The notes beneath the pieces are model-generated. The model did no database searches and was not told where the DNA came from. It worked only from the letters and a program-made list of their open reading frames with translations. Made by a program: the position numbers and the translations under genes. Positions 3,309 through 63,869 of a stretch of DNA of 64,000 nt are shown here, in pieces; the stretch's first letter is position 1; each line of letters starts with the position of its first letter. Source of the DNA: Cenarchaeum sp. (lineage in GTDB: Archaea; Thermoproteota; Nitrososphaeria; Nitrososphaerales; Nitrosopumilaceae); assembly GCA_965242695.1 (NCBI GenBank), contig CBDESU010000001.1, forward strand, positions 1,056,001-1,120,000, read 5' to 3'.

Positions 3309-3418
3309 GTGTTTGCCGGATGTGTTTGCCGGATGTGTTTGCCGGATGTGTTTGCCGGATGTGTTTGCCGGATGTGTTTGCCGGATGTGTTTGCCGGATG
3401 TGTTTGCCGGATGTGTTT
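3309..3418. repeat. 13-bp tandem repeat (GTGTTTGCCGGAT) x8 plus a partial copy, upstream of the transposase inside the IS
   Basis: Eight perfect copies read directly at 3309-3412. Confidence 0.97.
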
Positions 3419-3970: not shown

Positions 3971-4077
3971 CCACCGCCGCCGCCTGGGATTCGGCCCCCT
4001 TTTTCCTCAAGGTGCTGACCGCGCTGCGAGTGGACGGCAGCCCACCGCCGCCGCCTGGGATTCGGCCCCCTTTTTCC
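3971..4077 (+). repeat. Putative ectopic CRISPR spacer integration 1: 36-bp duplication with 35-bp insert
   Basis: CCACCGCCGCCGCCTGGGATTCGGCCCCCTTTTTCC at 3971 and 4042 (identity runs to 38 bp); period 71; frameshifts the IS66 transposase; shares CGGCCCC at positions 22-28 with the minus-strand CRISPR repeat. Confidence 0.75.
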
Positions 4078-12000: not shown

Positions 12001-12031
12001 TTCTAGCGACAATAGACTTCGCACCCGCCGG

Positions 12032-13078
12032 CTACTTTTTCTTCTTGGGCTTGCTCTTGGAGTCTTCAAGCTCCTTCTTCGCGCTCGCCAGCTGGAATGT
12101 CGCATCATCTCCTTCGCCCACGCCGAACGACTTGGCCGCGGCCTCTGCAAATGCCACTGCCTCGTCAGGATCAAGCGATACGGCATCCCTTCGACCGTCA
12201 GGATGGACGGCTTCCCACGACGGAATCCCCTTTTCCGAGTCCCTAGTAAGGTTGCAACCCTGGCGAAGATACAAATCGGTGGCCTTCGTCGCAGCCACCA
12301 GCGCAAGTCCCAGTATATACTTGCGGAGGGAGGAGGCGTCGATGCTACTCGACAGCCTGCGCAGCGCGACCAAGTTCACCACCACATCCCTGCGGATGCC
12401 GCCCCTTGCGATGACTCCCCCCGGCTGCCCTGTAGCAGGCGCCTCATTGAATCCATACTCTGACCTCGTGTCGTTCTCGGCAGTGTTAGTGATTTCCCCC
12501 AGCAGATCATCCTTCCTGTAGTCGACAGGCGGGAAGTACTGCGCCGAACGGCTCAGCTCGTCTATGTCGTACGCCCTGATCACGGACGAGATGATCCTCG
12601 GCGCCTTTACCTGCGTGTTGCGCGAGTCCCAGACCCCGAACAGCAGCGATGTCGGGGCCACCTTGGCAAGGGCGCCAGCATCGCCCGATGTCTTGTAGGA
12701 CTGTAGCGCCTCGCGGATGCGTCCGTACACATCCGAGTGCCTCAGCAGTGCATCACCCGCCCTGTGCCCAACCTCGCACAGGTTCACCTTTTGCTGGCCT
12801 GCTGTGATCGTAATCTGTGGTATAAGTCCTCTGTAGCGTCCCTCCATGAACAGCGGCTCCATGCGGTTTGCCTGCGACCCGACGCTGTCAACGAGGCACA
12901 TCTTAGTCCCGTCCTGCAGCGTGTCTATGCAGTACGAGCTCCCGTCGGATCCCGTCCCGGCATACGTGGGCGGGAAGAACGGCTCGCCGGCGCCCTCCAC
13001 CGGCACCAGATGCTCCCTCATCACCAAGGCCGACGGGCCACCCTCGACCCACGCCCCGGCATCCTCGGACAGCCCCAT
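12032..13078 (-). CDS. csb1: Type I-G Cas7 backbone protein (Csb1)
   Basis: FFPPTYA, LVDSVGSQANRMEP, HRAGDA, PTSLLFGVWDS and LRQGCNL. ATG start at 13078 chosen; the ORF extends to 13096. Confidence 0.92.
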   Translation of the reverse strand: MGLSEDAGAWVEGGPSALVMREHLVPVEGAGEPFFPPTYAGTGSDGSSYCIDTLQDGTKMCLVDSVGSQANRMEPLFMEGRYRGLIPQITITAGQQKVNLCEVGHRAGDALLRHSDVYGRIREALQSYKTSGDAGALAKVAPTSLLFGVWDSRNTQVKAPRIISSVIRAYDIDELSRSAQYFPPVDYRKDDLLGEITNTAENDTRSEYGFNEAPATGQPGGVIARGGIRRDVVVNLVALRRLSSSIDASSLRKYILGLALVAATKATDLYLRQGCNLTRDSEKGIPSWEAVHPDGRRDAVSLDPDEAVAFAEAAAKSFGVGEGDDATFQLASAKKELEDSKSKPKKKK

Positions 13079-13079
13079 G

Positions 13080-13817
13080 TCAAACCGGCGCCTCACGGGA
13101 CATATTAAAGGCTTTGTTGGCGCCGCTCCGCCCCGTCCAGAACTCGAACTTCCGGTGGGCTAGGCGCCCAATCGCCCCACTTGCGACGGCGGCCGCAACC
13201 GTCATGGGTAGAGGCTCGCCCCATGTGTAGTAGGCATAGTGGCCCCGCTCGACCTCCCTCCAAGAGTACGACTGCACCCCCACATGGGCAAAGAACTCTA
13301 CAAGTGGGTACGTCCGCATTTCCTTCATCCCCTGCTCGTTGAGGCTAAAGCCGACATCCTGCGCAGTCCATCGCGTGGCGGCATCGATGCCGGACGGGAG
13401 GCTGACCGTCGAAAAATCCGTCCATGTGGACAGCCCGCCCCCCCTCTGACAGTACGCGTTCAAGAGGCGCGCCCACCGCTCCACCAGAGGCTTCGACCTG
13501 ATCTGCCCCGCGAACAGCTTGATTGTCGGCCTGTCGTCAAAGTGGTTCCAAAAGTCCAGCCGCAAACGGACGTCGTCGATGGTCACGGGCGAGTCCGCAT
13601 CGTCGGTCTCTGCTCTGACCGAGCCCGAGCAGTCCTTGAGTCTGCGTATCACGGAGATTGCCGGGTCGGGTTCGGCCGCGCGCAGGACAAACCGATCCCC
13701 ATCAAAGTGCCCCACGGCATCCCCGAGCAGATGGTCGGCGCAGTACAGTATGCCGCAGCATGCAAAGAACTGTCCGGGATTGCGCAGGTCTGTCGCAATA
13801 GTGGATGAGGCTGTCAT
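13080..13817 (-). CDS. cas8g: Type I-G large subunit, short Cas8g (Csb3/Cas8u1-like), 245 aa
   Basis: NPGQFFACCG N-terminal motif, YPLVEFFAHVG; located between cas3 and csb1 with ATGA coupling to cas3. Confidence 0.8.
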   Translation of the reverse strand: MTASSTIATDLRNPGQFFACCGILYCADHLLGDAVGHFDGDRFVLRAAEPDPAISVIRRLKDCSGSVRAETDDADSPVTIDDVRLRLDFWNHFDDRPTIKLFAGQIRSKPLVERWARLLNAYCQRGGGLSTWTDFSTVSLPSGIDAATRWTAQDVGFSLNEQGMKEMRTYPLVEFFAHVGVQSYSWREVERGHYAYYTWGEPLPMTVAAAVASGAIGRLAHRKFEFWTGRSGANKAFNMSREAPV

Positions 13818-31600: not shown

Positions 31601-34600
31601 TTGACAGTTGCGGAAGGGTCAATCCCCCGCCTTCCCCAGGTGCCTCAATGCCAGCTTCAATGGGGCCGCAACTTGACAGTTGCGGAAGGGCCGCCCCCTT
31701 AGCTCTGGTCCCGCGGGATGCGCCAGCTTCAATGGGGCCGCAACTTGACAGTTGCGGAAGGTCATCGATCTGCTTTATTTCGGGGTTGTTTTTCTTGCTT
31801 CAATGGGGCCGCAACTTGACAGTTGCGGAAGGGCTCGTTGGCCGCCACGGTGAGCTCGGCTTCTTGTCTGCTTCAATGGGGCCGCAACTTGACAGTTGCG
31901 GAAGGCGCGGGCAGCTGGCCCCAGAGCCACGCCTGACGCTGCTTCAATGGGGCCGCAACTTGACAGTTGCGGAAGGCCGCCGTCCGCGTCGAGGTCGCGC
32001 GCCCCGGGGCCGCTTCAATGGGGCCGCAACTTGACAGTTGCGGAAGGATGTCCGGAAAACCGACCAAGCCCTGGCCGCCTTAGCTTCAATGGGGCCGCAA
32101 CTTGACAGTTGCGGAAGGAACAAGAACGGGGAACTGGAGCCGGAGACGATGCTGGCTTCAATGGGGCCGCAACTTGACAGTTGCGGAAGGATTGTCGCTT
32201 CCACGCTCCACGCAAAAAGGCCCGGGCTTCAATGGGGCCGCAACTTGACAGTTGCGGAAGGTGGAAGAGTTGGGTACCCAGTTCTTCGACTACATGGAGC
32301 TTCAATGGGGCCGCAACTTGACAGTTGCGGAAGGTACCGCCATTCAGCACGGCCCCGAAGTATTTGAATATGCTTCAATGGGGCCGCAACTTGACAGTTG
32401 CGGAAGGTCCGTGTTGAGGGCGGTGCGCAGGTCGGCGGGCGGCTTCAATGGGGCCGCAACTTGACAGTTGCGGAAGGTTGGCACTTTTCTCGAAATCCAA
32501 GATGACGCCTCGCGGGGCTTCAATGGGGCCGCAACTTGACAGTTGCGGAAGGCCTGCGTGCGGGCCGTAGTGTCAAAGCGGGCCTCGGCTTCAATGGGGC
32601 CGCAACTTGACAGTTGCGGAAGGGGTCAACGCCCTGGTGGCATCGCTTCAGCAGGGCCAGGCTTCAATGGGGCCGCAACTTGACAGTTGCGGAAGGGATC
32701 GACGGCCTAGAGGGCGCGGCGCGGCGCCTCAGCTTCAATGGGGCCGCAACTTGACAGTTGCGGAAGGCAGGCGGAGTGCCTGCCGCCTGTCCCCATCTTC
32801 AGATTGCTTCAATGGGGCCGCAACTTGACAGTTGCGGAAGGCGCGTACCGCGCTATCTACGGGCGCCCGCACCCTGGCGCTTCAATGGGGCCGCAACTTG
32901 ACAGTTGCGGAAGGCAGTAGCGGCCACTCGTGCGATCCCCTGTCGGACGCTTCAATGGGGCCGCAACTTGACAGTTGCGGAAGGTCGGAATCATGGCGGC
33001 CACAAACGGCAAGCTCGCAGCTTCAATGGGGCCGCAACTTGACAGTTGCGGAAGGGAGTAGCGGACGGTAGAGGCGTAGCAGTTGATCACGCTTCAATGG
33101 GGCCGCAACTTGACAGTTGCGGAAGGAGTATGAGCTCGTCACGCAGGCGTATCATCGAGTCGTGCTTCAATGGGGCCGCAACTTGACAGTTGCGGAAGGC
33201 GGACCGTCTCACGGGGCGCCGCTGGCTTACTGTCTTGCTTCAATGGGGCCGCAACTTGACAGTTGCGGAAGGCAAAGAGAGCTGCGCGCAAAGGTGCAAA
33301 GCCATACGCTTCAATGGGGCCGCAACTTGACAGTTGCGGAAGGCGGCTACAAAGCCGTCCAAAAAGCCGGCAAGTATCGGCTTCAATGGGGCCGCAACTT
33401 GACAGTTGCGGAAGGCCATGACGATACGGCGGATGTGGTTTGACCGCGGGCTTCAATGGGGCCGCAACTTGACAGTTGCGGAAGGCGGCGGCGGTGCGAT
33501 GCGCACGGCCCGGCTCGCCGCTTCAATGGGGCCGCAACTTGACAGTTGCGGAAGGTGCTCGCGCTAGTCTCTACCGTGGGGATCGGCGCAAGCTTCAATG
33601 GGGCCGCAACTTGACAGTTGCGGAAGGCGGCGGCAGTCGTCATGGCTGCGGCACCACCATGGTGCTTCAATGGGGCCGCAACTTGACAGTTGCGGAAGGC
33701 ATGGGACAATGCAAGCCAAGTAGCGGACGAGTGGCTTCAATGGGGCCGCAACTTGACAGTTGCGGAAGGCGGCCCTGCGCCGGGCTACCAGGCCGACGCG
33801 GTCCGGCTTCAATGGGGCCGCAACTTGACAGTTGCGGAAGGAGCCTAGCGATCACTGCGCGCGTGTCGGCAAGCGCGTGCTTCAATGGGGCCGCAACTTG
33901 ACAGTTGCGGAAGGCCGATCCCGCGAGCAGGCCGCCCGCGAGGCCGCAGAGCTTCAATGGGGCCGCAACTTGACAGTTGCGGAAGGGGCGGGCAGCCACT
34001 CGCCGGCGTGCCGCCACCTCGCTTCAATGGGGCCGCAACTTGACAGTTGCGGAAGGCTCAACGAGACCAAGTTCGAGGCGTTCGCCGCCTCTGCTTCAAT
34101 GGGGCCGCAACTTGACAGTTGCGGAAGGCTCGGCGAGGCCAACGCCCCGGGCAACCGCCTCGCGCCGCTTCAATGGGGCCGCAACTTGACAGTTGCGGAA
34201 GGACGGGGCAGGGTACGGCGTCCGGCGCCCAGGACCAGCAGCTTCAATGGGGCCGCAACTTGACAGTTGCGGAAGGCGTCCGCGCCCTGGTCGGGCTTGA
34301 TCTAATACGGGCTTCAATGGGGCCGCAACTTGACAGTTGCGGAAGGGCCTTGATGTATGCTCGCGCGTCCTACCGATTGTGGCTTCAATGGGGCCGCAAC
34401 TTGACAGTTGCGGAAGGCCCGGGCGGGACATGTCCCCAAAGCAGATCGCGCAGGCTTCAATGGGGCCGCAACTTGACAGTTGCGGAAGGGGCAACGTGCA
34501 GGAGCGCCTGCTCGAGATGACCCCGCTTCAATGGGGCCGCAACTTGACAGTTGCGGAAGGTGGCGGCGGGCCAACGTGTACGTCCGTCCCTCTGCCTTGC

Positions 34601-37600
34601 TTCAATGGGGCCGCAACTTGACAGTTGCGGAAGGCGCCACAATCCCTGGTATGCAAGCAGGTGGTTAGCCAGGCTTCAATGGGGCCGCAACTTGACAGTT
34701 GCGGAAGGCTCCGCTCGGTTAGCGGTCCTACGCGCCTATCACTGCTTCAATGGGGCCGCAACTTGACAGTTACGGAAGGGGCAAAGCGCTCCGGCCGCTC
34801 GGCGCGGAGTTTGCGGCTTCAATGGGGCCGCAACTTGACAGTTGCGGAAGGGCTTGTCCAAGGACTCGGCGCAATTCTGACAAAGCGCTTCAATGGGGCC
34901 GCAACTTGACAGTTGCGGAAGGCGTAACCCCGACACCGCTTCCCGAAGAGGACGAGCGGCTTCAATGGGGCCGCAACTTGACAGTTGCGGAAGGTCGGGA
35001 CCACGTCCCCAAGTTGGTAGGGGAGGACAGCTTCAATGGGGCCGCAACTTGACAGTTGCGGAAGGTGACGGGCGCAAACAAGACCATGAAGATGTTCGTA
35101 GCTTCAATGGGGCCGCAACTTGACAGTTGCGGAAGGGGGCTTGCCTCCTTTACGAAGACTGACGTGCAGGCCATGCTTCAATGGGGCCGCAACTTGACAG
35201 TTGCGGAAGGCAAACAACATGCTTGAATACCGTGCGTTGATTACTGGCTTCAATGGGGCCGCAACTTGACAGTTGCGGAAGGTGTGGGGCTTACTGCCCT
35301 GATATTCAAGGATTAAGCTTCAATGGGGCCGCAACTTGACAGTTGCGGAAGGTTTGGGAGGGCATTAGGCTCATCGACCCGAATATCGGCTTCAATGGGG
35401 CCGCAACTTGACAGTTGCGGAAGGCGCCCTAGATGTGTGGAATCTGACAGGCAACCCCAGCTTCAATGGGGCCGCAACTTGACAGTTGCGGAAGGAGGAC
35501 GGACAGGGGAGCACAGAATGACCGAGCGCTAGCTTCAATGGGGCCGCAACTTGACAGTTGCGGAAGGCGGACCGCTCAACGAGTTCGCACAGCGCTGCTC
35601 GGCGCTTCAATGGGGCCGCAACTTGACAGTTGCGGAAGGGTCGATTGGTGCAACGAACGCATCGCCGACGACAGCTTCAATGGGGCCGCAACTTGACAGT
35701 TGCGGAAGGCGTACGATCCAGACTTTGCCGTCATGGACGCCGGCGGGCTTCAATGGGGCCGCAACTTGACAGTTGCGGAAGGCGGTTGACAGGGGAGTTG
35801 GCCACCGCCCTGCGCGGGGCTTCAATGGGGCCGCAACTTGACAGTTGCGGAAGGCGCAAAGAGATTTTGCCGGTCGGCGGCGTGCAGGCTGGGCTTCAAT
35901 GGGGCCGCAACTTGACAGTTGCGGAAGGACTGGGAATGGGTAAAGACGGTAGCCACGCTTCTAGCTTCAATGGGGCCGCAACTTGACAGTTGCGGAAGGA
36001 TCATGGCCGTCCACGGGGTTGCCTTTTTTTCAACCGCGCTTCAATGGGGCCGCAACTTGACAGTTGCGGAAGGCATTATGAGATCGGTAGTGTGTTTTTG
36101 ATCCTGCTCGCTTCAATGGGGCCGCAACTTGACAGTTGCGGAAGGCCCTGAAGCGCCTTCAGCGCCCCCGCCCCACGCCTGCTTCAATGGGGCCGCAACT
36201 TGACAGTTGCGGAAGGTGAGATCGGCGGCCCCGTCGGGGCCTAGCGCAGGTGCTTCAATGGGGCCGCAACTTGACAGTTGCGGAAGGCGGTGGGGGCTGT
36301 GCCTGCCGACGCGATTGAGGATGGCTTCAATGGGGCCGCAACTTGACAGTTGCGGAAGGACGATCCTGGGGGAACGCCGGAGCAGGGCTGCTTCAAGCTT
36401 CAATGGGGCCGCAACTTGACAGTTGCGGAAGGGCCGACGGGCTTGGCCCGCAGGGCGAAGATTGGCTTGCTTCAATGGGGCCGCAACTTGACAGTTGCGG
36501 AAGGTACGTCAGGCGGCATCCCGACCTGTGCTGCATGATGCTTCAATGGGGCCGCAACTTGACAGTTGCGGAAGGAGCGCTGCATGAGCCTGCCGCTTAA
36601 CGGGGGGGGCTTCAATGGGGCCGCAACTTGACAGTTGCGGAAGGTATGCGGCAAGCCCGCCCAGCACTCGGACGCGCCTTGCTTCAATGGGGCCGCAACT
36701 TGACAGTTGCGGAAGGGGTCGGGTTCGCACTGTGGCGACTCGGTAAGGCCTATGCTTCAATGGGGCCGCAACTTGACAGTTGCGGAAGGATGTACAATGC
36801 GGCCGTACGCGCGCAAAAATCGCAGGGCTTCAATGGGGCCGCAACTTGACAGTTGCGGAAGGGGGCGGCCCGCCTGCGCCTGGCGTCCGACGCCCGCCGG
36901 CTTCAATGGGGCCGCAACTTGACAGTTGCGGAAGGACGATTCCGACTTCAATGCCGTCGGCCAATCCGCGGGCTTCAATGGGGCCGCAACTTGACAGTTG
37001 CGGAAGGATTTGCCCGAATATCTGACGGGCCTTGGCCAACCCGCTTCAATGGGGCCGCAACTTGACAGTTGCGGAAGGCGGCACGCCGTTCAACTGCAAG
37101 TATTACCGCGTCGGGCTTCAATGGGGCCGCAACTTGACAGTTGCGGAAGGCAGATGACAAGCCGTCAAAGGGGGCGCGCCCGACATGCTTCAATGGGGCC
37201 GCAACTTGACAGTTGCGGAAGGGCGGCGCCCCAGCGCAGGGCCGCGCTAGGCCTGCCCGCTTCAATGGGGCCGCAACTTGACAGTTGCGGAAGGGGCTCA
37301 ACGCCAGGGCCGTGTAAACGTCGCCGTGCCTGCTTCAATGGGGCCGCAACTTGACAGTTGCGGAAGGGGGGGGGCGCTCGCGCTGGGGCGGCCCGCACGG
37401 GCTTTGCTTCAATGGGGCCGCAACTTGACAGTTGCGGAAGGGCGTGGGCGCCATGCAGGATGAGGGCGGTGCGTTTGGCTTCAATGGGGCCGCAACTTGA
37501 CAGTTGCGGAAGGACAGGGGCGCCCGCCGCCGGCGGCATGGCCTGCTGGGCTTCAATGGGGCCGCAACTTGACAGTTGCGGAAGGGGCGATCCGTGGAAG

Positions 37601-40404
37601 TGGGACCGTCTGCGCAAGGAGCTTCAATGGGGCCGCAACTTGACAGTTGCGGAAGGGACGCGAGGCGGGTGCGCGCGGTCTCTACGGCGGTAGCTTCAAT
37701 GGGGCCGCAACTTGACAGTTGCGGAAGGGGGACGTGCCACGTGCAGTTCGATCACCCACCCGGGGCGCTTCAATGGGGCCGCAACTTGACAGTTGCGGAA
37801 GGCACCAGGCGTGGTCGTTCGCCGACGGCGTCACTGCGCTTCAATGGGGCCGCAACTTGACAGTTGCGGAAGGAGTCCGCGACGCCATGACGCCGCTCGA
37901 AAAGGCCGCGCTTCAATGGGGCCGCAACTTGACAGTTGCGGAAGGCGCCGGCATTCCGCGACGCGCGCGGGGCATGTCGGGCGCTTCAATGGGGCCGCAA
38001 CTTGACAGTTGCGGAAGGATAGCTCTCGGTCACGTCCCGCAGCAGCATCCGGATGCTTCAATGGGGCCGCAACTTGACAGTTGCGGAAGGCATCAAGCGA
38101 ACAAAGAAGGCGGGCAGGGCCCTAGGGCTTCAATGGGGCCGCAACTTGACAGTTGCGGAAGGCTCGGCCCTGGTCTACGGGCCGGCGGCCCAGAGCGGGC
38201 TTCAATGGGGCCGCAACTTGACAGTTGCGGAAGGATGCCTGATGCGCCAGGATGCGGACGGCGATCTCCGTGCTTCAATGGGGCCGCAACTTGACAGTTG
38301 CGGAAGGCATTGCGCCGGTAAAGCCAAAGGGCAGGCTATATACCCGCTTCAATGGGGCCGCAACTTGACAGTTGCGGAAGGGCCAATCATGCCTCTCCTA
38401 CGCGGAAGAGGTATATAAGGCTTCAATGGGGCCGCAACTTGACAGTTGCGGAAGGCGGCGTGGTGCGGGCGTACGCCCGCGCCAGGTCCTGCTTCAATGG
38501 GGCCGCAACTTGACAGTTGCGGAAGGATGCATATAGCGGGCCGCAGGCGCTAGCGCGGCGTGGCTTCAATGGGGCCGCAACTTGACAGTTGCGGAAGGGG
38601 GCGCGGCGGGCCGCCGCGCGGCAGGAAACCCCCAAGCTTCAATGGGGCCGCAACTTGACAGTTGCGGAAGGCTGGATGAAGTGGCGCGCCTGGCGCCGGC
38701 GGAGTATGCTTCAATGGGGCCGCAACTTGACAGTTGCGGAAGGCCGCGGCCTCGGCGTCGAGTGCAAGGTCGAGCTCGGGCTTCAATGGGGCCGCAACTT
38801 GACAGTTGCGGAAGGGGACATGACCGTACACGACTGCATCATTGCCGCACTGCTTCAATGGGGCCGCAACTTGACAGTTGCGGAAGGATATATGTCATCT
38901 AAGTACGTTGGCTCACAGTGGCTAGCTTCAATGGGGCCGCAACTTGACAGTTGCGGAAGGGGCACTGCTCGCAGCGCCCCCGCCCGACGGCCGCGCTTCA
39001 ATGGGGCCGCAACTTGACAGTTGCGGAAGGTGTTTGCCCTCAACTTTTCCTGATCCGATTATGAGGCTTCAATGGGGCCGCAACTTGACAGTTGCGGAAG
39101 GCGGCGACAGCCTCGACGCCCAGGACTACGGCAACCAGCTTCAATGGGGCCGCAACTTGACAGTTGCGGAAGGTTATATCCACTCGGCGCGGGGCGCCGG
39201 TAAGGATGCTTCAATGGGGCCGCAACTTGACAGTTGCGGAAGGGACGTGCGGCAGACAATGCAGGCTGCCGAGTCGATGCTTCAATGGGGCCGCAACTTG
39301 ACAGTTGCGGAAGGGGGCCACCGCCCCATAGTCCCGCACCGCCGTCCTGTGCTTCAATGGGGCCGCAACTTGACAGTTGCGGAAGGAGGCGTGGATCCGA
39401 TCGCCAAAAACAAAAGGGTTAGCTTCAATGGGGCCGCAACTTGACAGTTGCGGAAGGACGGCAAGTCGCTCATCGTCCGCCTCGGCGCCGCGCGCTTCAA
39501 TGGGGCCGCAACTTGACAGTTGCGGAAGGGTGCAGCATGTCCGAGCCTGCCGATGGGCAGGGGCCGGCTTCAATGGGGCCGCAACTTGACAGTTGCGGAA
39601 GGCGCCTTCAAGTTGGGCGTGCGGGCCGTAGCCGACGAGCTTCAATGGGGCCGCAACTTGACAGTTGCGGAAGGTCGTGTCGGACACGTTCCCGGCGCCC
39701 TCGGCGGCCGCGGCTTCAATGGGGCCGCAACTTGACAGTTGCGGAAGGGCCCGCGGACCCGAGCGACACGCACGGCCCGCCCGAAGCTTCAATGGGGCCG
39801 CAACTTGACAGTTGCGGAAGGCGCGCCGCGATCTCATCTTGGAGCGAGCCGGACGGCAGGCTTCAATGGGGCCGCAACTTGACAGTTGCGGAAGGCGGAA
39901 TCTCGCGGGGATCAGACACGCGGACGTTGACCGCTTCAATGGGGCCGCAACTTGACAGTTGCGGAAGGAGATCATTCCCAGACTGGCGAGCGTTGGAATC
40001 CGCCGAGCTTCAATGGGGCCGCAACTTGACAGTTGCGGAAGGCTCTTAAGGCACAAGGGGGGCGGGCCGCCCGTTGAGGCTTCAATGGGGCCGCAACTTG
40101 ACAGTTGCGGAAGGGTCCGGCACGGTCGCCGACGACGGCAATCTAAAGGCGCTTCAATGGGGCCGCAACTTGACAGTTGCGGAAGGCCACGCATCGACCA
40201 GGCCCGCCGACAGAACGTCCGCGCTTCAATGGGGCCGCAACTTGACAGTTGCGGAAGGCAGGCGGCCGCGCGGTTGCGGCGTGGGCCTAACCACGGCTTC
40301 AATGGGGCCGCAACTTGACAGTTGCGGAAGGAGGCGGCGGCCGAGCGCGACAAAAAGGGGGCCATTGGGCTTCAATGGGGCCGCAACTTGACAGTTGCGG
40401 AAGG
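16688..40404 (-). CRISPR. Type I-G CRISPR array, 36-bp repeat CCTTCCGCAACTGTCAAGTTGCGGCCCCATTGAAGC (minus strand), about 330 repeats with spacers of roughly 34-39 bp
   Basis: Repeat read directly; count estimated from 23.7 kb at about 72 bp per unit. Orientation from the ATTGAAGC 3' end, the leader next to cas2 and degenerate repeats at the opposite end. Rare point variants at 16972, 17329, about 22883, 27351 and about 34744. Confidence 0.99.
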
Positions 40405-40602
40405 CCTGCGACGGACAACCATTTGTCCGCAGCTCGGCCGGCACAGTGATCATATGTGGGCTTTGGCTCCTGCTTGCCGTGTTTTTGCATTCAGTCGCGG
40501 TGGCGCCATCTCCGGCATTATAAGCAGGCGGCGAGCGCCCCAGGGGCCGAACCCCCTCACCGGGCCGCTCGCGCGCCCCCGGCGCCACCGCCCCCGATCG
40601 CA
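40405..40602 (-). promoter_or_regulatory. CRISPR leader with TATA-like box (TTATAA at 40518-40523)
   Basis: Non-coding region between the cas2 stop and the first intact repeat. Confidence 0.75.
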
Positions 40603-40905
40603 TCATACGACAAACGACGGCCTCCTTCCCCCGCCCGGCTGCAGCTTCACGCCGATCGTCTCTATGCGCCCGTCCGATGCATCCCCGTACGAGGGGCCCA
40701 CATCGACGACCAGCACCCTGTCCTGGGCGTAGTCGAGCAGGTCGGCAAGGTCCTCGCGGAGCCCCGTCAGCTCTATCCGGCTCAGGTCGCAGGCGAACAC
40801 CGAGTACTGCATGCGGTCGCCGTACCCGAGCATGGTCTTATAGGTCTGCTGGCGCCGCTTTGAATCCGCCACATCGTACGCCACAATGTACCTGTTCCGC
40901 GCCAT
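40603..40905 (-). CDS. cas2: Cas2
   Basis: YIVAYDV...GYGDRMQYSVFACDL...DRVLVVDVG. Confidence 0.96.
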   Translation of the reverse strand: MARNRYIVAYDVADSKRRQQTYKTMLGYGDRMQYSVFACDLSRIELTGLREDLADLLDYAQDRVLVVDVGPSYGDASDGRIETIGVKLQPGGGRRPSFVV

Positions 40906-40921
40906 CCGCACCCACCGCGCC

Positions 40922-42703
40922 CTACCGCGTCCTGAACGAGGGGTACGACGGCACCTCGCCTAGCAGGTGCCTCGTTAAGAGCCGCGCCTGCGTGGCCATC
41001 ACACGCCGGTAGCTTGCCGCGTACCCGAGCAGCGGGTGCGATACCTGCTCGTCGAGCCGCCGGTTGTACGCCATGATTGCCCTCTTCCTGCCGGCGGCGT
41101 TCAGGCTCGTCCCGACCCCCGCCCTCACAAAGTCGGACGGCCCGATCTCGCCGCCGTTTACCATCCGCAGGCACACAGAGTCTGCCACAAGCGGGCGGAA
41201 CTCCTCCATCAAGTCCAGCGCCAGCGCCGGCTTGCCGTGCTTTGGCCTGTGCAGGTACCCCAGGTGCGGGTCGAGTCCGACGCGGCTCGCAGTCACAGCC
41301 GCATCCTTTGCAAGCATCGAGTACAGGTATGACAGCAGCGCGTTGACGGGGTCTGTCGGCGGGCGGCGCCTGCGCCCCTCCAGCCGGAACTCGGCCGCCG
41401 CCCCGGCATCCTTCACCATCGTGCTGAACTTTCCAAAGTACGTGCGCGCGGCCATGCCCTCTATGCCTAGCAGCGCCTCGTAGCTCCTCTCCTTCAGGGC
41501 CCGCTCGGCCAGCCCGTCGAGGTCAGATACGGCCGCGGCCACCCCCTCGTCCCCCGCCGGCCCGTTCCTCCGCAGCATCGTCGCGCAGTTGCGCGCCTTG
41601 CCGTGCACGATGCGCCGCGCAATGTCCATCGAGCCCCTCTGGTCCGAGTACATCCTATGCTGCGCGATGCGCAAGTGCACGTTCCGGCCGGACATCCCCG
41701 AGAGTATTCCGTAGAACCAGCCGCCGTACGACATGTAGCAGACCGGAATGTTGCGCACGGCGAGCTCGCGCAGCGCCTGCGTCGTGACCTGGACGTTGCC
41801 GAGGACGGTAACCTCCGATATGTCAAGAAGCTTGAACTCTTCCTCGGCCCCGCCCTTGCGCCTCACGACGAGCCGGTCGCCCGACTTTTTGACCGTCGCC
41901 CACTGCTCCTGCACGAACAGCGGGACGGTGTCGTTGCGCACGGGATACATCCGCCTCACCTGGTCCTTCGTCACGCTTCCGCCTCCGCCTTCGCCGTCGC
42001 CGGACAGCAGGTTGACCTCGTCGGGGAGACAAATGCCGACAAGCGAGCAGCCGGGGCACTTTGGGCTGTCGTAGAGCGGCGGCGGAAGGGTCTCAGACTC
42101 TGCATCGAGGCGGAACTCGGCGATCAGGGCGCGCGTGTGCGTCTCGAGATCCTCGTCGATCGGCACCTCGATGCGCCGCTTGGAGCCGATATAGTACACG
42201 GTGCCGCTGTCGCACTCGAAGCCGTTGGCCCGGAGCAGCAGCGCCTGCGCGCACACGTGCACCCTGTGGTCGAGGTACGTCCGCTCGGGCGTGTCGGGGA
42301 CCGTCCCGCGCTTGTGCTCGACCGGCGTCGCCTTTTTCCCCTCGGCCTCTAGCACGTCGAGCTTGCCGACGAGTCCCAGCTCCGGGTCGGAGAGCATCAT
42401 CGAGCGGGAGTGGATGGTCTCAGACTTCTTGCCAGCTCCCTTCTTGTCGCCGGCACCCCTGTCGTCAGGACCGCCGTCCCGCTCGGCCGCCTCCTCGGCC
42501 ATGCGCCTCTGGCCCGCCGGCCTGTCGACGTTGCGGTGCTTTAGCCTGCCGTCCACGGTGTATTCGTTGTGCTCGAACTCGCCCTGCACGTGCTCTAGGT
42601 ACCCAAGTCGCCGGCAGTACGAGTATTGGACGAGCATGCGGACGGGGATCAGGTCCTGCGCGGGCGCAGGTGCCTCGGCATTCTGCCCCTCCGCATCCGG
42701 CAT
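40922..42703 (-). CDS. cas4/cas1: Cas4-Cas1 fusion
   Basis: Cas4: YSYCRR, GKLDVLE, PVEHKRG, CAQALLL, KCPGCSLVGICLP. Cas1: LLGIEGMAARTYF, RRPPTDPVNALLSYLY, GYLH, LALDLMEEFRP. Start set at ATG 42703. Confidence 0.96.
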   Translation of the reverse strand: MPDAEGQNAEAPAPAQDLIPVRMLVQYSYCRRLGYLEHVQGEFEHNEYTVDGRLKHRNVDRPAGQRRMAEEAAERDGGPDDRGAGDKKGAGKKSETIHSRSMMLSDPELGLVGKLDVLEAEGKKATPVEHKRGTVPDTPERTYLDHRVHVCAQALLLRANGFECDSGTVYYIGSKRRIEVPIDEDLETHTRALIAEFRLDAESETLPPPLYDSPKCPGCSLVGICLPDEVNLLSGDGEGGGGSVTKDQVRRMYPVRNDTVPLFVQEQWATVKKSGDRLVVRRKGGAEEEFKLLDISEVTVLGNVQVTTQALRELAVRNIPVCYMSYGGWFYGILSGMSGRNVHLRIAQHRMYSDQRGSMDIARRIVHGKARNCATMLRRNGPAGDEGVAAAVSDLDGLAERALKERSYEALLGIEGMAARTYFGKFSTMVKDAGAAAEFRLEGRRRRPPTDPVNALLSYLYSMLAKDAAVTASRVGLDPHLGYLHRPKHGKPALALDLMEEFRPLVADSVCLRMVNGGEIGPSDFVRAGVGTSLNAAGRKRAIMAYNRRLDEQVSHPLLGYAASYRRVMATQARLLTRHLLGEVPSYPSFRTR

Positions 42704-42805
42704 GCCGCCCCTTCGCGCGCGCGGACCTAGTGCGCGGCGCCAAATGCGGTTGACGCCGTGGTGAGGAAAAGTTGACAGCGCGCGGCTGCCCCGCACCACA
42801 CTACA

Positions 42806-42825
42806 CCGCACCGCATAAATCCGCC
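42806..42825 (+). promoter_or_regulatory. Conserved 20-bp TPR-gene promoter motif CCGCACCGCATAAATCCGCC (also 44458, 45891, 50915, 52038, 56416, 57715; variant at 55976)
   Basis: Seven identical copies, each beginning 37-38 bp before a TPR start codon; ATAAAT sits at TATA-box distance. Confidence 0.85.
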
Positions 42826-42842
42826 CCGTACAGCCCGCCCCC

Positions 42843-43901
42843 GTGAGCGAAGACGGCAAGGAGGAGCACGAGCTCCCGCGCATACGCCTAAGCTACATCA
42901 CGGGCCCCGACGACGGCCCCGACGACGGCCCCGAAGAGGGGCGCGGCGGGGAAAGAGAGGGAGGCGGGCTGCCAGACCTCGCATCCTGCAAGGAGGCCGT
43001 CCGCCGCGACCCGGCCAGCATCAAGGCCCGCATGGAGCTCGCCACGGTCCTGCTCGCGTCCGGGCGCCTTGCCGCCGCGATCGCCGCCCTCGACGAGGCC
43101 GTGCGGATCGACCCGACCGGCGCCGAGGCGAACGCCATGCACGGCGCCGCGCTCCTGCGCGCCTCCAAGAGCGCCGAGGCCGAGCGCGCGTTCGGGGCCG
43201 CCGTCGCGGCCGACCCCGGCTACATCGCGGCCCACATCGGCCGGGCCGTCTCGCTCATGGGCCTCGGCAGGTACGCCGACGCGTCAGAGGCGTTCGCCGA
43301 GGCGGCGCGCAACGATCCCAAGAGCATCGATGCCAGGATCGGGCGCGGCGATACGCTGATCGCAACGGGCCGCCGCGACGAGGCCCTCGCGTCGTTCGAC
43401 GAGGCGCTGCGGATCGACCCCGGCAACGCGATGGTACACGCAAGGAGGGGCCGCGCGCTGCTCGAGACGGGCAGGCCCAGGAAGGCGCTCGCCGCGTTCA
43501 CGAGGGCCGCGCGGGCCGAGCCGAGGCTCGTCGATGCCCACATCGGGAGGGGCCATGCGCTGCTCGGGCTGGACAGGTACGAAAAGGGGCTTGCGGCATT
43601 CACGAGGGCGGCCCGCATTGACCCGCGCAGCCTGCCGGCCCACATGGGGCGCGCCGAGGCCCTCAGCGGCCTAGACCGCCCCGAGGGGTCGCTCGCCGCG
43701 CTAGACAGGGCCGCGGCCGTCGAACCGCAGTCGCCCACCGTCATCTCTGCGCGCGGAGGGGTGCTGTACGGCATGGGGCGGGTCGACGAGGGCATTGCGG
43801 CGCTCGAAGAGGCCGCCCGGCTCGCCCCCGACGACAAGTACCTTGCAAAGGTGATCGAAGAGCTGCGGCGGAGGAAGAAAGAGGGCGTGGCCGGGACTTG
43901 A
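42843..43901 (+). CDS. Tetratricopeptide repeat protein 1
   Basis: Tandem 34-aa TPRs (ALAAF.RA.R.DP...AH.GRG.AL..LGR). Confidence 0.92.
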   Translation: MSEDGKEEHELPRIRLSYITGPDDGPDDGPEEGRGGEREGGGLPDLASCKEAVRRDPASIKARMELATVLLASGRLAAAIAALDEAVRIDPTGAEANAMHGAALLRASKSAEAERAFGAAVAADPGYIAAHIGRAVSLMGLGRYADASEAFAEAARNDPKSIDARIGRGDTLIATGRRDEALASFDEALRIDPGNAMVHARRGRALLETGRPRKALAAFTRAARAEPRLVDAHIGRGHALLGLDRYEKGLAAFTRAARIDPRSLPAHMGRAEALSGLDRPEGSLAALDRAAAVEPQSPTVISARGGVLYGMGRVDEGIAALEEAARLAPDDKYLAKVIEELRRRKKEGVAGT

Positions 43902-46993: not shown

Positions 46994-48245
46994 CGCGCAG
47001 CGGCGCCCCTTCGCGCCGCCGCCGCAAGCCGGGTGATCAGCTCCCTTTCCGCGGCCCGAAAGCCGCAGTCCGCGTCGCGCCAAAAGCCGCGCCAGGCCTC
47101 GTTGAGAAGGCCGGCGACCGTGTCGCCGCCCGATCCGCCACGTTCCCGCCCCCCGCCGGAGTAGCCGCGCAGTCCCGCCCGCCCGAACGTCGGGAGTATG
47201 GAGGCGGCAACCTCTTGGAGCAGCTCGGACGGGAAGGCGTGGCCGTACCCGGGCGGCGGGCTGCCGCACAGCTGCGCCATCGCGCCCCATTCCGCCCTGA
47301 TGCGATCCGCCTCTGGCTCGTGCCCGAGCAGTCGCATCCCGGCGTCGAGCAGGCGCATCCTGGCCTCGCCGGAGGGGTGGTCCTGCTCGGACAGCGGCCT
47401 GAGCTCGTAGATGTCCAGGTCAGTCTTGGTAACGAGGTGCAGGTTCGAGTGCGCGTATGCAGGCCCCGCCGCAAACAGGGCAAAGAGATCGCAGAACGCC
47501 TCCTGTATCCAGATAGACTTCCACCGTGACCACATCCACTCCACACCGTCCCGCGTCAGCGCCGGATCCGGCCCGCACTCCGTCTTGCCCACAAGCTGCG
47601 AGTACCGATCATCGACGACGCCAAGCGCGCCGTCCGTGCCATCCATGATGGGCTCGCACCCGGCTCCACGATTTACGTGGACGAACAGCAGGTGCCCCAT
47701 CTCGTGATAAAAGTCAGGCATGTGCAATAGGAACGCCGCCTCCGAGAACGGGACATGCACGGTATTGGTCGCCGGATGCGCAAAGTAGTACTCACCCGAC
47801 GTACACGATACCGCCGGACAGGGAAACGGCAGGCCCACCTCGCCGTGCATCGCGGACAGGACATCGTTGAGGAACACTGCCCGCTCCGTCTGGCAGTGCA
47901 GCGGCGGCATGCAGTACCCGTCGACCGCTGTTATTACCCTGGTGCAACCTTTCAGGATCCGCAACGCCTTGGCGCCAGCGCCACCCGTACAGCCGTTGAC
48001 AAGCAGGTCGTCAGCCCGTTCCAACATGCTCGACTGCCGCTCCAGTGTCACTATAGTCGCGGCGGCCAGGCGTTCCAGTGCCGCATGCCGCCGCCGCCGC
48101 CGGCCGGCGCCCTGTACATGGACCCGGTCGCGGCGGCCAGGCGTTCCAGCGCCGCATGCCGCTGTCTGTCCGGAATTGCGGCCCTCAGGTACTCGGCCCT
48201 GTCGATCTGCTCGCGGATGGCGCACCTCAAGTAGCGGGTGCTCAT
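46990..48245 (-). pseudogene. HExxH zinc-metallopeptidase-like protein (about 394 aa), frameshifted by a 71-bp duplication-plus-insert
   Basis: FYHEMGH, EAFCDLFA...GPAY and DHPSGEAR; ATG 48245 overlaps the upstream stop (ATGA); 1256-71 = 1185 bp = 395 codons. Confidence 0.75.
48056..48162 (+). repeat. Putative ectopic CRISPR spacer integration 2: 36-bp duplication with 35-bp insert
   Basis: GTCGCGGCGGCCAGGCGTTCCAGYGCCGCATGCCGC at 48056-48091 and 48127-48162 (one mismatch); insert CGCCGCCGCCGGCCGGCGCCCTGTACATGGACCCG. Confidence 0.8.
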
Positions 48246-60227: not shown

Positions 60228-60629
60228 TCAATACAGGGAATTCTCGCGCCAAGGCGTGGTATGCTCGATCACCTCGCCCGAGGCGATCATCTCCCTTATC
60301 TCGTCCTCGCTGTACTTTGATCCCAGGTTGCACGGATCAAACCGTATCGTGATGCGCTTAGGCCCCGTCTTTTGGCTCTCGTACATGAGTTCAGCGAGCT
60401 CGCGCGCCGAGAGGTTGCGGTCCTCCTGCGCCGGCAGGCTGCGCATGCCCGCCATCCCAGCGCCGTCCGCCCCGCCGCCCTCGCAGACGCTACCCTGCGG
60501 CGCGGCACCGGCCGCGCCCTCGGGCACGCCGCCAGTCGATGCCGGCGCGTCCTGCCCCGCTCCCGCCCCGCCGCGGGCATCGGCCGCGGGCGCCTCGGCC
60601 CCCGTGCTGCACCCTGCAGGCCTGTCCAT
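60228..60629 (-). CDS. 133-aa hypothetical protein, copy 1
   Basis: Three paralogues (ITIRFDPCNL.SKYSE.EIR.MI.SGEVIE.TTPWRE), each with CTTATATT about 25 bp upstream. Confidence 0.7.
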   Translation of the reverse strand: MDRPAGCSTGAEAPAADARGGAGAGQDAPASTGGVPEGAAGAAPQGSVCEGGGADGAGMAGMRSLPAQEDRNLSARELAELMYESQKTGPKRITIRFDPCNLGSKYSEDEIREMIASGEVIEHTTPWRENSLY

Positions 60630-61053
60630 GCGGGGTGGATATTCAACTCCAATATAAGGCCTGCCGTGCCCCGCCGGCGATCACCCTGTCGGCCTTGGCC
60701 GTGCATCGCCTGCAGTAGAATTGCGTGTGCGGTCGTACGTTGCAAAGATGGGCCGCACAGCCGCATGTGGACGGCCCGGCAGTCCCCGCGCTGCGCTGCT
60801 TGCGCCCGGTGTCGCGGCCGCGGCCGCGGCCGCCGCGCCTGCCTCCCGCGCCTCGCCCCAGATCTGCGGGTCGCGGCCGCAACCCTCGTGCGCGCCAGAA
60901 TTGCGGCGTCCAATCACGCGTCCCATTTCACAGGGTTCGCGCCAGCGGCAGCGCATGCGGCATGGCCGGCAGGGGCCGGGGCGGGCAGGGAGGGGGGCGC
61001 CCTGCGGCGGTCCGGACATCAACATCTGCGCTCGCACCCTAGAGTAATATGTA

Positions 61054-62037
61054 GTGCCGTCTTCGACCGCACTCGTGGCGCGGAAGAGGATATACGTGCG
61101 CGGCTCGGCCCGGTTGCCGCGGGTCAGCCTGTACGACATGTTTGTAAAGTTCTACCGGGCGCGCGTCAAGGCGGGCGACGGCGATCCGGACCACGCCGAC
61201 ATGGCGGTCGTCAGGTTCTCTACTACGCTCGAGCAGTCCGGCCGGCGCCTTTGGAAGGTTTACCTGGAGGGCCATCCAGACGACGAGACCGTCGAGGTGG
61301 TCGTGCAGCGCCACAATTTTGACCATGTGCGGCGCATGGCATGGGCCGAGCTGGTTGCAAGCAGCAAGAACATCTCTAGCACGGACGATCTGCGCTCGAT
61401 CCTTGACAAGTTGGGGATGGGCGCCGTCCTTGGCAAGAAAAGGGCGGCGGCGGCGGGCTCCACCATGAGCAGCCGGCACGGGGTCGTCCATGGCGCCGCA
61501 GACGCGGGCATCGACGTGGTCGATGCGTTCGGAGAGATCGAGCCGCTGATTCGCGACATGCTCTCGAACGACCTGGAGGCGCTGATCCAGATGGACCTTG
61601 CAAAGGCCCACGTGGCGGAGACGGTGCCTGGCAGCACGTGGTCGCCGCGCGAGTGCCACGAGGCGATCGTGGAGCGGTGCAGCAAAGCCAGGGGCGGCGA
61701 TCAAGCGCTGGTCCAGCGATCCATGGGCAGGTCGCTGGCTGCGCTGGAACGGGATGCAGAGGCCTTGGAGGCGTACACCCGCGCTGCCGAGATCAATCCG
61801 GAATACGCCGCCGCGCATGCCGGCCGCGGCGATGCGCTCTACGCGCTGGATCGGGATGCAGAGGCCTTGGAGGCGTACACCCGCGCTGCCGAGATCAATC
61901 CGGAATACGCCGCCGCGCATGCCGGCCGCGGCGATGCGCTCTACGCGCTGGATCGGGATGCAGAGGCCTTGGAGGCGTACACCCGCGCTGCCGAGATCAA
62001 TCCGGAATACGCCGCCGCGCATGCCGGCCGCGGCTAG
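61054..62037 (+). CDS. TPR protein with unique N-terminal domain, C-terminally truncated
   Basis: Three near-identical 102-bp TPR units at about 61750-62034; the missing tail (DALAALGRHGEAQDAHEAASRISSNAGND) survives at 62912-63001 and about 59995-60086. Confidence 0.75.
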   Translation: MPSSTALVARKRIYVRGSARLPRVSLYDMFVKFYRARVKAGDGDPDHADMAVVRFSTTLEQSGRRLWKVYLEGHPDDETVEVVVQRHNFDHVRRMAWAELVASSKNISSTDDLRSILDKLGMGAVLGKKRAAAAGSTMSSRHGVVHGAADAGIDVVDAFGEIEPLIRDMLSNDLEALIQMDLAKAHVAETVPGSTWSPRECHEAIVERCSKARGGDQALVQRSMGRSLAALERDAEALEAYTRAAEINPEYAAAHAGRGDALYALDRDAEALEAYTRAAEINPEYAAAHAGRGDALYALDRDAEALEAYTRAAEINPEYAAAHAGRG

Positions 62038-62185
62038 CGCCCCTGCCGCATGTAGTGCCTTGCCAGCGCGCGACATTCAGTGTGTTAGCTAGGCCGCCGT
62101 ACTGTAGGACGAGCACAGCCACACGGCGCCGCACGTAAACCCTCGGCGCTCGGCGCGGTCATTCCAGCGGCCGGCGTCCCTCAAG

Positions 62186-62587
62186 TCAAGACAGGGATCT
62201 CTCGCGCCAAGGCGTGGTATACTCGATCACCTCGCCCGATTCGATCATCTTCCTTATCTCGCTCTCGCTGTACTTTGATTCTAAGTTGCACGGATCAAAC
62301 CGTATCGTGATGCGCTTAGGCCCCGTCTTTCGGCTCTCGTACATGAGTTCAGCGAGCTCGCGCGCCGAGAGGTTGCGGCCCTCCTGCGCCGGCAGGCTGC
62401 GCCTGCCCGCCATCCCAGCGCCGTCCGCCCCGCCGCCCTCGCCGGTGCGGCCCTGCGGCGCGGCACTGGCCGCGCCATCGGGCACGCCGCCAGTCGATGC
62501 CGGCGCGTCCTGCCCGGCTCCCGCTCTGCCGCGGGCATCGGCAGCGGGCGCCTCGGCCCCCATGCCGCATCCTGCAGGCCTGTCCAT
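62186..62587 (-). CDS. 133-aa hypothetical protein, copy 2
   Basis: Paralogue of 60228-60629. Confidence 0.7.
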   Translation of the reverse strand: MDRPAGCGMGAEAPAADARGRAGAGQDAPASTGGVPDGAASAAPQGRTGEGGGADGAGMAGRRSLPAQEGRNLSARELAELMYESRKTGPKRITIRFDPCNLESKYSESEIRKMIESGEVIEYTTPWRERSLS

Positions 62588-62789
62588 GCCGGGCGGATAT
62601 TCCACTCCAATATAAGGCCTGCCCTTCCTAGCCGCGAGATCCCTGTCCTAGGGCGGCACGGCGAGGTCGCCTTGCGGCACCGCCGCATCCGGCGGCGGCG
62701 CGATCGGCGCCATGCCGCTGGCTGCAGAGGGAACCGCCACGGCGGCGGCACGGGGAATGAGGGTGCAGGGGAGTGGACAGGGACGGGCA

Positions 62790-63001
62790 ACGCGCATGCC
62801 GGCCGCGGCGGTGCGCTCTACGCGCTGGAACGGGATGCAGAGGCCTTGGAGGCGTACACCCGCGCTGTCGAGATCAACCCGGAATACGCCGCCGCGCATG
62901 CCGGCCGCGGCGATGCGCTTGCCGCACTAGGACGCCACGGCGAGGCGCAGGATGCCCACGAAGCGGCCTCTCGCATCTCAAGCAATGCCGGCAACGACTA
63001 G
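62790..63001 (+). pseudogene. C-terminal TPR fragment related to 61054-62037
   Basis: Near-identical DNA to the 102-bp unit plus the native stop. Confidence 0.7.
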
Positions 63002-63141
63002 CACCCCTGCCGCATAGTGCACCCTGTCCACGTGCGATGGGGTTTGCGCTCGCCATCCGCCGCACTGTAGGACAAACACGGCCACGCGGCGCCGCACGGA
63101 AACCCCTCACGCGGCCATTCCAGCGGCCAGTGTCCCTCAAG

Positions 63142-63543
63142 TCAAGACATGGATCTCTCGCGCCAAGGCGTGGTATACTCGATCACCTCGCCCGAGGCGA
63201 TCATCTCCCTTATCTCACTCTCGCTGTACTTTGATTCTAGGTTGCACGGGTCAAACCGTATCGTGATGTACCTAGGCTTCGTCTTTCGGTGTTCGCGTAC
63301 GCGCTCAGCGCGCTCGCGCGCCGAGAGGGTGCGGCGTCCTTGCGACTGCCGGCCATGCTTGCCCGCCATCCCAGCGCCGTCCGCCCCGCCGCCCTCGCAG
63401 GCGCTACCCTGCGGCGCGGCACCGGCCGCGCCATCGGGCACGCCGCCAGCCGATGCCGCCGCGTCCTGCCCTGCTCCCGCCCCGCCGCGGGCATTGGCCG
63501 CGGGCGCCTCGGCCTCCGCGCCGCATCCTGCAGGCCTGTCCAT
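63142..63543 (-). CDS. 133-aa hypothetical protein, copy 3
   Basis: Paralogue with a divergent middle segment (RERAERVREHRKTKPRY). Confidence 0.7.
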   Translation of the reverse strand: MDRPAGCGAEAEAPAANARGGAGAGQDAAASAGGVPDGAAGAAPQGSACEGGGADGAGMAGKHGRQSQGRRTLSARERAERVREHRKTKPRYITIRFDPCNLESKYSESEIREMIASGEVIEYTTPWRERSMS

Positions 63544-63652
63544 GCTGGGCGGATATTCCACTCCAATATAAGGCCTGCCCTGCCTAGCCGCGAGATCCCT
63601 GTCCTAGTGCGGCACGACGAGGCCGCCTTGTAGCACCGCCGCATCCGGGGCC

Positions 63653-63760
63653 GGCGCGATCGGCGCCGTGCCGCTGGGCTGTGGAGTGCCTGTACCAGGC
63701 GGCGGCCAACGGAGCGACATCCTAGGCGCGATCGGCGCCGTGCCGCCGGGCTGCGGAGGG
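63653..63760 (-). repeat. Putative ectopic CRISPR spacer integration 3: 36-bp duplication with 36-bp insert
   Basis: 63653-63688 and 63725-63760 (three mismatches); insert CCTGTACCAGGCGGCGGCCAACGGAGCGACATCCTA; paralogous site 62696-62731 has a single copy and no insert. Confidence 0.8.
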
Positions 63761-63869
63761 AACCGCCACGACATCGGCGGCACGGAGGACGAGGGTGCAG
63801 GGGATTGGACAGGGGCTGGCAGCGTGCATGCCCGCTGCGCGGCGGCGGAGGCGGGATGCGTCGGCCCGC

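Follow-up and report, generated by a model that had tools for sequence, protein, structure and literature searches.

The segment at 63653–63760 of the stretch of Cenarchaeum DNA analysed here (64,000 nucleotides, called the window; contig C1, positions 1056001–1120000, of the genome G000) is most probably a scar left where the genome's own type I-G Cas4/Cas1-Cas2 machinery integrated a spacer off target (ectopically). The evidence for ectopic integration is the geometry of the unit, an empty paralogue and an empty population allele of the same site, a genome-wide class of 119 such units, the donors of some of their inserts, and the co-occurrence of units with Cas4/Cas1 among relatives. On the proposed mechanism, the integrase would join both 3′ ends of a prespacer of ~36 bp to opposite strands of non-CRISPR DNA at points ~36 bp apart, and gap filling would then duplicate the 36 bp between the joints, as it would for the first repeat of an array. 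Against ectopic integration stand the absence of repeat likeness in the targets, donors without TTN, an anticorrelation between the lengths of duplicated core and filler, a relative that has the cas genes and is free of units, a confounding of Cas1 with G+C content, and the divergence of the two target copies at 3 of 36 positions.

The genome (3.89 Mb in two contigs, C1 and C2; 67–68% G+C) carries an archaeal 16S rRNA gene and archaeal AmoA. By its profile matches, the window holds a type I-G CRISPR-Cas locus, the cas operon of which (9868–42883) is split by a 23.7-kb array and runs on the minus strand in the order cas4/cas1, cas2, leader, array, cas3g, cas8g2, cas7g, csb2. Adaptation is represented by a cas4/cas1 fusion (40922–42883, minus; Pfam Cas1, E = 4.5e-87, and Cas4, E = 1.1e-14) and by cas2 (40603–40911, minus; PF09827, E = 3.5e-17), so that a Cas1 + Cas2 adaptation module is present in this unit-bearing genome; a PF01867 search of the whole genome gave one match, the fusion itself, as the only Cas1 homologue found. 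The type I-G interference genes cas3g (13814–16420), cas8g2 (13080–13817), cas7g (12032–13096) and csb2 (9868–12306), all on the minus strand, are matched by the corresponding NCBIfam set of four families (TIGR02621, TIGR04106, TIGR02570, and TIGR02165). The leader region, assigned by position only, lies between cas2 and the first repeat (40405–40602, minus) and has a TTATAA-like box, read from the sequence, which on the minus strand precedes the first repeat by ~125 nt. The array itself (16688–40404, minus) comprises 330 repeats, all of 36 bp, and spacers of 31–40 bp with a mode of 36 (121 of 329), which gives an array unit with a mode of 72. Since the degenerate repeats (two decayed copies just below 16688) and the leader (on the 40405 side) lie at opposite ends, the array is read on the minus strand, where the repeat runs CCTTCC...ATTGAAGC.

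Two array spacers match the genome perfectly elsewhere: the 10th from the leader (39675–39712) matches C1:975632–975669, and the 84th (34347–34381) matches C2:698844–698878, from which the adaptation module appears to have been active recently. Both protospacers have TTA beside them on the leader-distal side, opposite to the upstream TTN of Geobacter sulfurreducens, and the two spacers would therefore have been integrated the wrong way round and tolerated for that reason; wrong-way integration looks like a way in which self-targeting would become harmless. When 952 spacers from five arrays were compared with G000 and the sampled genomes, these two self-matches and one low-complexity spacer were the only matches. 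Elsewhere near the cas genes, two open reading frames (1810–3216, minus; 8464–9819, plus) have weak ISH3-family transposase matches (E ~1e-18, under the curated cut-off), and a 13-bp unit, TGTGTTTGCCGGA, is repeated 8.5 times with 100% identity at 3308–3418, which is unusual in DNA of 68% G+C.

The unit at 63653–63760 consists of a left target copy (R1, 63653–63688), a spacer-sized insert of 36 bp (63689–63724), and a right target copy (R2, 63725–63760), with a period of 72. The two target copies have three mismatches (at positions 23, 30, and 35; 33 of 36 identical), their longest identical run being 22 nt; strict ends, with the last two positions dropped, give 34 bp of duplication and 38 bp of insert. 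The duplication is therefore as long as the genome's own CRISPR repeat (36, or 34 strict, vs. 36 bp), and the insert falls within the range of array spacers and at their mode. The target was also considered as a functional CRISPR array, but it agrees with the main repeat at 17 of 36 nt and has no counterpart of the stem CCGCAACT/AGTTGCGG. Weak coding signal around the site, upstream of a small gene, probably explains why insertion was tolerated here: codon periodicity is low on both sides (0.18 and 0.06), and the gene in question is an open reading frame of 139 amino acids (63142–63561, minus) without a Pfam match.

No second copy of the insert exists in G000, and none of the 329 array spacers matches it; with up to 3 mismatches allowed, its own site is the sole match across the five genomes of the genus, and an exact search of viral, metagenome and genome contig collections returned 0 hits. 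Single copy in its genome and confined to its own site in those five genomes, the insert is not of present host origin, which supports its reading as an insertion. Insertion sequences and MITEs have terminal inverted repeats, duplications of 2–15 bp, and many copies of the same insert; this reading was rejected, as the insert here has ends (CCTGTA.../...ATCCTA) that form no inverted repeat, is flanked by a duplication of 36 bp, and occurs once in the genome, while at the level of the class the inserts are mutually unrelated except at one duplicated locus. Replication slippage, or a tandem duplication of 72 bp of which one half later diverged, is extremely improbable, even though 72 is a multiple of three and a few of the 119 units are plain tandem duplications (e.g., C1:1942254, where the core is 52 bp long and the filler repeats the flank). 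At 63653–63760 the insert matches the 36 nt that follow R2 at only 11 of 36 positions, at or below the background of 0.31, while the repeat half matches at 33 of 36, and the unit is therefore not a 72-bp tandem duplication; across the class, periods of 70, 71, and 73 are enriched too, and 11 inserts have donors elsewhere in the genome.

The same site is found without the insert in a neighboring paralogue. Cassette A (~62150–62800) and copy B (63106–63830), which bears the unit, have a mean column identity of 88% over a cassette of ~700 bp, and in their pairwise alignment cassette A reads straight through a single, unfilled copy of the target at 62697–62731, with a gap of 73 columns opposite one target copy and the insert of B. 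The target in A is 35 nt long, one G shorter, and is followed directly by AACCGCC. The picture of two target copies flanking a 36-bp insert beside a one-copy paralogue, drawn in the first-pass annotation, is thus confirmed. The small gene of the cassettes is present three times on the minus strand as an open reading frame of 133–139 amino acids (60228–60629, 62186–62605, and 63142–63561), none with a Pfam match, alternating with pieces of a TPR gene that include 2.9 copies of a 102-bp unit at 99% identity (61741–62034).

An empty allele of copy B itself occurs in the population. In X5, a metagenome run from a different study from X1–X4, a contig of 181 nt joins 63675 to 63748, skipping exactly 72 bp; it differs from copy B at 1 position in 124 nt, whereas a paralogue-like contig of the same run has 9 differences over the same 124-nt stretch. 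Depth in X5 is 0 over 63689–63719 and the insert is absent from its contigs, while the filled allele of 63653–63760 is present in contigs of X1, X3, and X4; the runs that hold the stretch include some labelled sponge metagenome, and none of them is listed as RNA. Because the flanks of the empty allele are nearly identical to those of copy B, the polymorphism between filled and empty is recent. If an assembly k of ~31 is assumed, the joint in X5 is unlikely to be a k-mer collapse, since the identical runs of the two copies reach 22 nt at most, and we infer that k-mer assembly could not have created it. At the three mismatches between R1 and R2, the empty allele carries T, C, and G, the letters of paralogue A, which are for this reason taken as the ancestral state; measured against paralogue A and the X5 allele, R1 has derived letters at positions 30 and 35. 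Relative to the empty allele, R1 and R2 together have 3 changes in 72 nt as against 1 in 181 nt of flank (P of 3 or more = 0.008 at equal rates), which would mean that the copies already differed when they were formed or that they are fast-changing.

It is conceivable that the two-copy state predates the duplication of cassettes A and B, and that recombination between R1 and R2 removed the insert both from A and from the X5 allele; the unit would still have originated as an integration. Direct repeats of 36 bp can recombine, and the divergence of R1 from R2 (3 of 36) is not far below the ~12% between A and B. The locus has no outgroup, since no relative carries the cassette (among 41 genomes, a full match was found in G000 only, and the hits in G002 and G004 are short, with E > 9e-5) and the third gene copy (60228–60690) is without the target region. 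An ancestral two-copy state would, however, need two independent precise deletions, and for a crossover between R1 and R2 to leave the full set of three ancestral letters seen in X5, it must have fallen in a particular 6 nt of the 36 (~0.19); the closeness of the X5 flanks to copy B weighs against it too, and we regard it as very unlikely. The single-copy paralogue and the empty allele with ancestral letters thus uphold the earlier claim of an insertion with target duplication. The paralogue, which the first-pass annotation had ranked as the best internal evidence, is surpassed in strength by the population allele and by the genome-wide class. A further empty site is seen between genomes, a unit in G004 having an unoccupied orthologous site in G000.

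The genome-wide class was found in a scan for direct repeats, imperfect ones included (27 or more of 30 nt matching, periods 40–130), from which the array, low-complexity sequence, and full tandem repeats were removed and in which overlaps were merged. Clean pairs number 5, 9, 8, 14, 27, 46, and 10 at periods 67–73, respectively, an excess beyond chance, while the remaining scanned periods, multiples of three apart, have mostly 0–2 pairs each; period 102 corresponds to the TPR repeat. There are 119 isolated units in G000 (~31 per Mb), each with its own duplicated sequence, and in 59 of them the copies are identical. Two further units lie in the window, both of period 71: one with R1 at 3971–4008, insert at 4009–4041, and R2 at 4042–4079 (copies identical at 38 of 38 positions), the other with R1 at 48056–48091, insert at 48092–48126, and R2 at 48127–48162 (35 of 36). 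Units lie in coding-like DNA in 16 of 119 cases, vs. 57% of random sites (p = 6e-27), a depletion consistent with random insertions that selection has since filtered. A concentration of units around the CRISPR locus was considered and rejected: five units lie at 1.04–1.13 Mb of C1, and counts in 200-kb bins are fairly even. Several loci have more than two copies: a 3-repeat array at C2:173431–173680 of G000 has one non-CRISPR repeat and spacer-sized fillers, overlapping units that have a single repeat in common form a run at 36223–36460 of the G002 sample, and a 3-repeat array of a non-CRISPR repeat occupies 63589–63770 of the G059 sample. These multi-copy units, each with at least two spacer-sized fillers, look like small new arrays grown from a first stray insertion. 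At C2:312248–312355 of G000 there is also a degenerate repeat pair of period 68 that has TGCGGCCCCATTGAAG in common with the main repeat and a different stem; it may be the remnant of a second array.

The lengths of duplication and insert are not fixed separately. The duplicated core ranges from 23 to 52 bp (mode 36, SD 4.8) and the filler has an SD of 4.9, while the period has an SD of only 1.6 and core and filler lengths are strongly anticorrelated (r = -0.95); the sum is fixed and the split is variable, which simple integrase geometry does not predict. Decay of the duplication or indels as the source of short cores found little support, as the match rate beyond the core is at background in registers 0 to ±3 and a gapped tail test for decayed duplication gave a weak signal (z = 0.8). 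Exact local matches of at least 7 nt occur at the start of the filler in 31% of short-core units vs. 12%; where a short-core unit has a known donor (three cases), the donor part keeps a length of 33–38 bp and the adjoining 4–10 nt match neither donor nor duplicate. The length of some long cores reflects 2–4 nt common to the donor end and the target. Two candidate accounts can be offered, namely scars of untidy repair at the junctions, or a ruler for the second site that reads spacer and repeat as one length. Conservation of the sum alone also speaks for an undescribed, Cas1-independent process that adds ~72 nt as a short DNA piece with a compensating target duplication, its match to CRISPR lengths being indirect or coincidental; the evidence from inserts, targets, and relatives bears on this process as well.

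Donors elsewhere in G000 were found for 11 of the 119 inserts, with 33–38 bp matching at 94–100% identity (15 rows were reduced to 11 by dropping two rows of a duplicated locus, a 60-nt match to a repeated gene, and a weak low-complexity hit), and period minus donor match is 34–39 bp. That 11 of 119 inserts are host-derived can be read in favor of the Cas1-independent process; the length of the donor-matching parts, which is in the range of spacers, counts against it. Self-derived inserts are more frequent outside the array than inside it (11 of 119 vs. 2 of 329; Fisher p = 1.5e-5), as would be expected if ectopic units make no functional guide RNA, and we infer that they make none that works. 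TTN on the donor flanks is found in ~1–2 of 11 cases with both sides counted, and is not enriched. Comparison of the inserts with array spacers and with each other gave short chance matches only, except for the duplicated locus C2:21121/22547, and hairpins are not enriched in the inserts (filler folding energy -9.07 vs. -8.90 for random DNA, p = 0.70). In 2 of 11 pairs (e.g., C2:1502087 and C1:1412333) the donor end and the target share 4 nt at the joint, with ~0.2 expected by chance over 22 joints, which hints that short base pairing helps to place a stray integration.

Off-target integration in Escherichia coli is said to favor leader- and repeat-like sites, and the first-pass annotation had placed the present unit at a repeat-mimicking site, on the strength of a 9-of-11 match between the target end (the last 11 nt of R2, GCTGCGGAGGG) and the leader-proximal end of the repeat (GTTGCGGAAGG). 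The match is correct and in register with the 36-nt repeat, and no other unit among the 119 reaches 9 of 11 (4 of 119 reach 8 or more). Random sites reach 9 or more with P = 0.0018, so that at least one among 119 is expected with a probability of ~0.19. The class as a whole has no enrichment in likeness to the leader-proximal 11-mer (mean 5.39 vs. 5.35 in controls) or to the whole repeat (15.7 vs. 15.3–15.5), and since targets thus have no repeat likeness, the match at 63653–63760 is probably due to chance. Of the earlier interpretation, the insertion with a repeat-length target duplication is supported and the mimicry of the repeat is not. The only target biases seen are G+C richness (76% vs. 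67%) and a G where the duplication begins, read on either strand (101 of 172 ends, with C at a further 52; p = 9e-5). The want of both a PAM and repeat likeness is a further point for the Cas1-independent process.

Relatives were sampled over 340–400 kb each with the same filter, at periods 67–74. G004, with a Cas4/Cas1 79% identical to that of G000, the same repeat, and 69% G+C, has 16 units in 360 kb; G002, with a Cas4/Cas1 53% identical, a related 36-nt repeat, and 66% G+C, has 28 units in 340 kb; and G059, which belongs to another genus and has Cas4/Cas1, a related repeat, and 63% G+C, has 14 units in 360 kb, a coding-repeat cluster accounting for 3. No Cas1 was found in G001 (57% G+C), which has 0 units in 400 kb, or in G003 (51% G+C), where the single hit in 400 kb is an AT-rich 69-bp tandem repeat. 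With that repeat set aside and G000 counted, units occur in 4 of 5 Cas4/Cas1-positive genomes and in 0 of 2 Cas1-less ones, a contrast that is confounded in that every unit-bearing genome is both Cas4/Cas1-positive and of 63–69% G+C while the Cas1-less samples have 57% and 51%. G017 (4.3 Mb, 38% G+C), which has Cas4/Cas1 and a related 36-nt repeat, was examined at C1:400001–760000 and 1696001–1736000; it has 0 units in 360 kb, and the unit load is therefore not general to this type of system.

Where units occur, their period follows the array of the same genome. The array mode is 72 in G000, where 27 units have a period of 71 and 46 one of 72, and 71 in G002 (118 vs. 87), where 14 units have 71 and 3 have 72; the split of units between 71 and 72 thus differs between the two genomes in the direction of their arrays (Fisher p = 0.0009). 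This tracking, together with the restriction of units to Cas4/Cas1-positive genomes, is difficult to reconcile with a Cas1-independent process, for which the unit-free G017 with its cas genes would otherwise speak. We also know of no enzyme besides Cas1-Cas2 that makes repeat-length duplications around spacer-length inserts. On balance a Cas1-independent origin is unlikely, and ectopic integration by Cas4/Cas1-Cas2 is the reading followed below.

Casposons are Cas1-dependent transposons, kilobases long, that carry their own cas1 and make duplications of ~14–15 bp. The units of Cenarchaeum are like them in that a Cas1-family integrase would make the target-site duplications, and differ in their 36-bp insert and in the single Cas1 that the genome-wide search returned. 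Another likeness is to the neo-CRISPR loci that arise by non-canonical spacer integration in E. coli, type I-E, when Cas1-Cas2 is over-produced (Nivala, Shipman & Church 2018, Nat Microbiol 3:310, as described in 10.1101/148544, PMC7054753, and PMC6698737); natural cases, in two species, are called circumstantial in a passage that cites Nivala 2018. As these sources describe the E. coli loci, the units share with them a spacer-sized insert between repeat-length duplications of non-CRISPR sequence, an adaptation module in the genome, and multi-repeat descendants (the examples in G000, G002, and G059). Unlike the E. coli loci so described, the events in Cenarchaeum are natural, heritable, polymorphic between populations, and set in an archaeal type I-G system at ~31 per Mb; their targets are without measurable leader or repeat likeness, most of their inserts lack a PAM, and some of the inserts come from self DNA.

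Off-target full-site integration by Cas1-Cas2 of Pyrococcus furiosus in vitro, as described in PMC6698737, has paired joints one repeat length apart with a preference for G and then C, and the joints of the Cenarchaeum units are likewise one repeat length apart and prefer G and then C. The P. furiosus reactions differ in that they were run on plasmids, with a 30-bp repeat, and that the preferred sites share conserved positions of the repeat (PMC6698737), whereas the Cenarchaeum targets share no detected repeat positions. For the Cas4/Cas1 fusion of G. sulfurreducens, type I-U/I-G, array-integrated spacers are described as mostly having TTN upstream (Almendros et al. 2019, PMC6547450). Cenarchaeum resembles this system, to the extent that it is described there, in its fused Cas4/Cas1, the position of cas2 upstream of the leader, the 36-bp spacer mode, and a repeat ending in AGC, and the TTA flank of its two self-matching array spacers fits TTN; in contrast, its ectopic inserts are mostly without TTN, which resembles the lost PAM selectivity reported for Cas4 mutants (PMC6547450). 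In ectopic acquisition at CRISPR1 and CRISPR3 of Streptococcus thermophilus, too, the spacer is placed away from the leader-proximal repeat, but as described in PMC5338259 and PMC7999890 those events are inside the array at true repeats, whereas the Cenarchaeum targets are unrelated chromosomal sequence.

Off-target integration is known from E. coli that over-produces Cas1-Cas2 and from test-tube reactions. The literature searched, in which Nivala 2018 is represented by papers that cite it, describes no comparable scar load for any natural genome. What differs here is the natural archaeal type I-G setting, with ~31 scars per Mb in G000 and scars in at least four species of two genera. Because half of the scars have identical duplications and one is variable in the population, the integrase would be a continuing insertional mutagen, the survivors of which lie in non-coding DNA. 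Ectopic units that make no working guide RNA would preserve the catch of the enzyme before selection, a catch that is mostly without a PAM and ~15-fold richer in self DNA than the array is. For the question of how arrays arise from nothing, natural material is provided by the 3-repeat arrays and, in G002, the longer run, and a fixed sum with a variable split is a testable rule for the choice of the second site. It is possible, although we put it forward only tentatively, that in these sponge-associated ammonia-oxidizing archaea promiscuous Cas4/Cas1-Cas2 integration has left, and is still leaving, a natural record throughout the genome. Each genome would then have over 100 scars, variable between populations, in which only the sum of duplication and insert is fixed. 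If this is true, the second strand transfer would be measured over spacer and repeat as one length, not over the repeat alone, and the scars would also seed new multi-repeat arrays.
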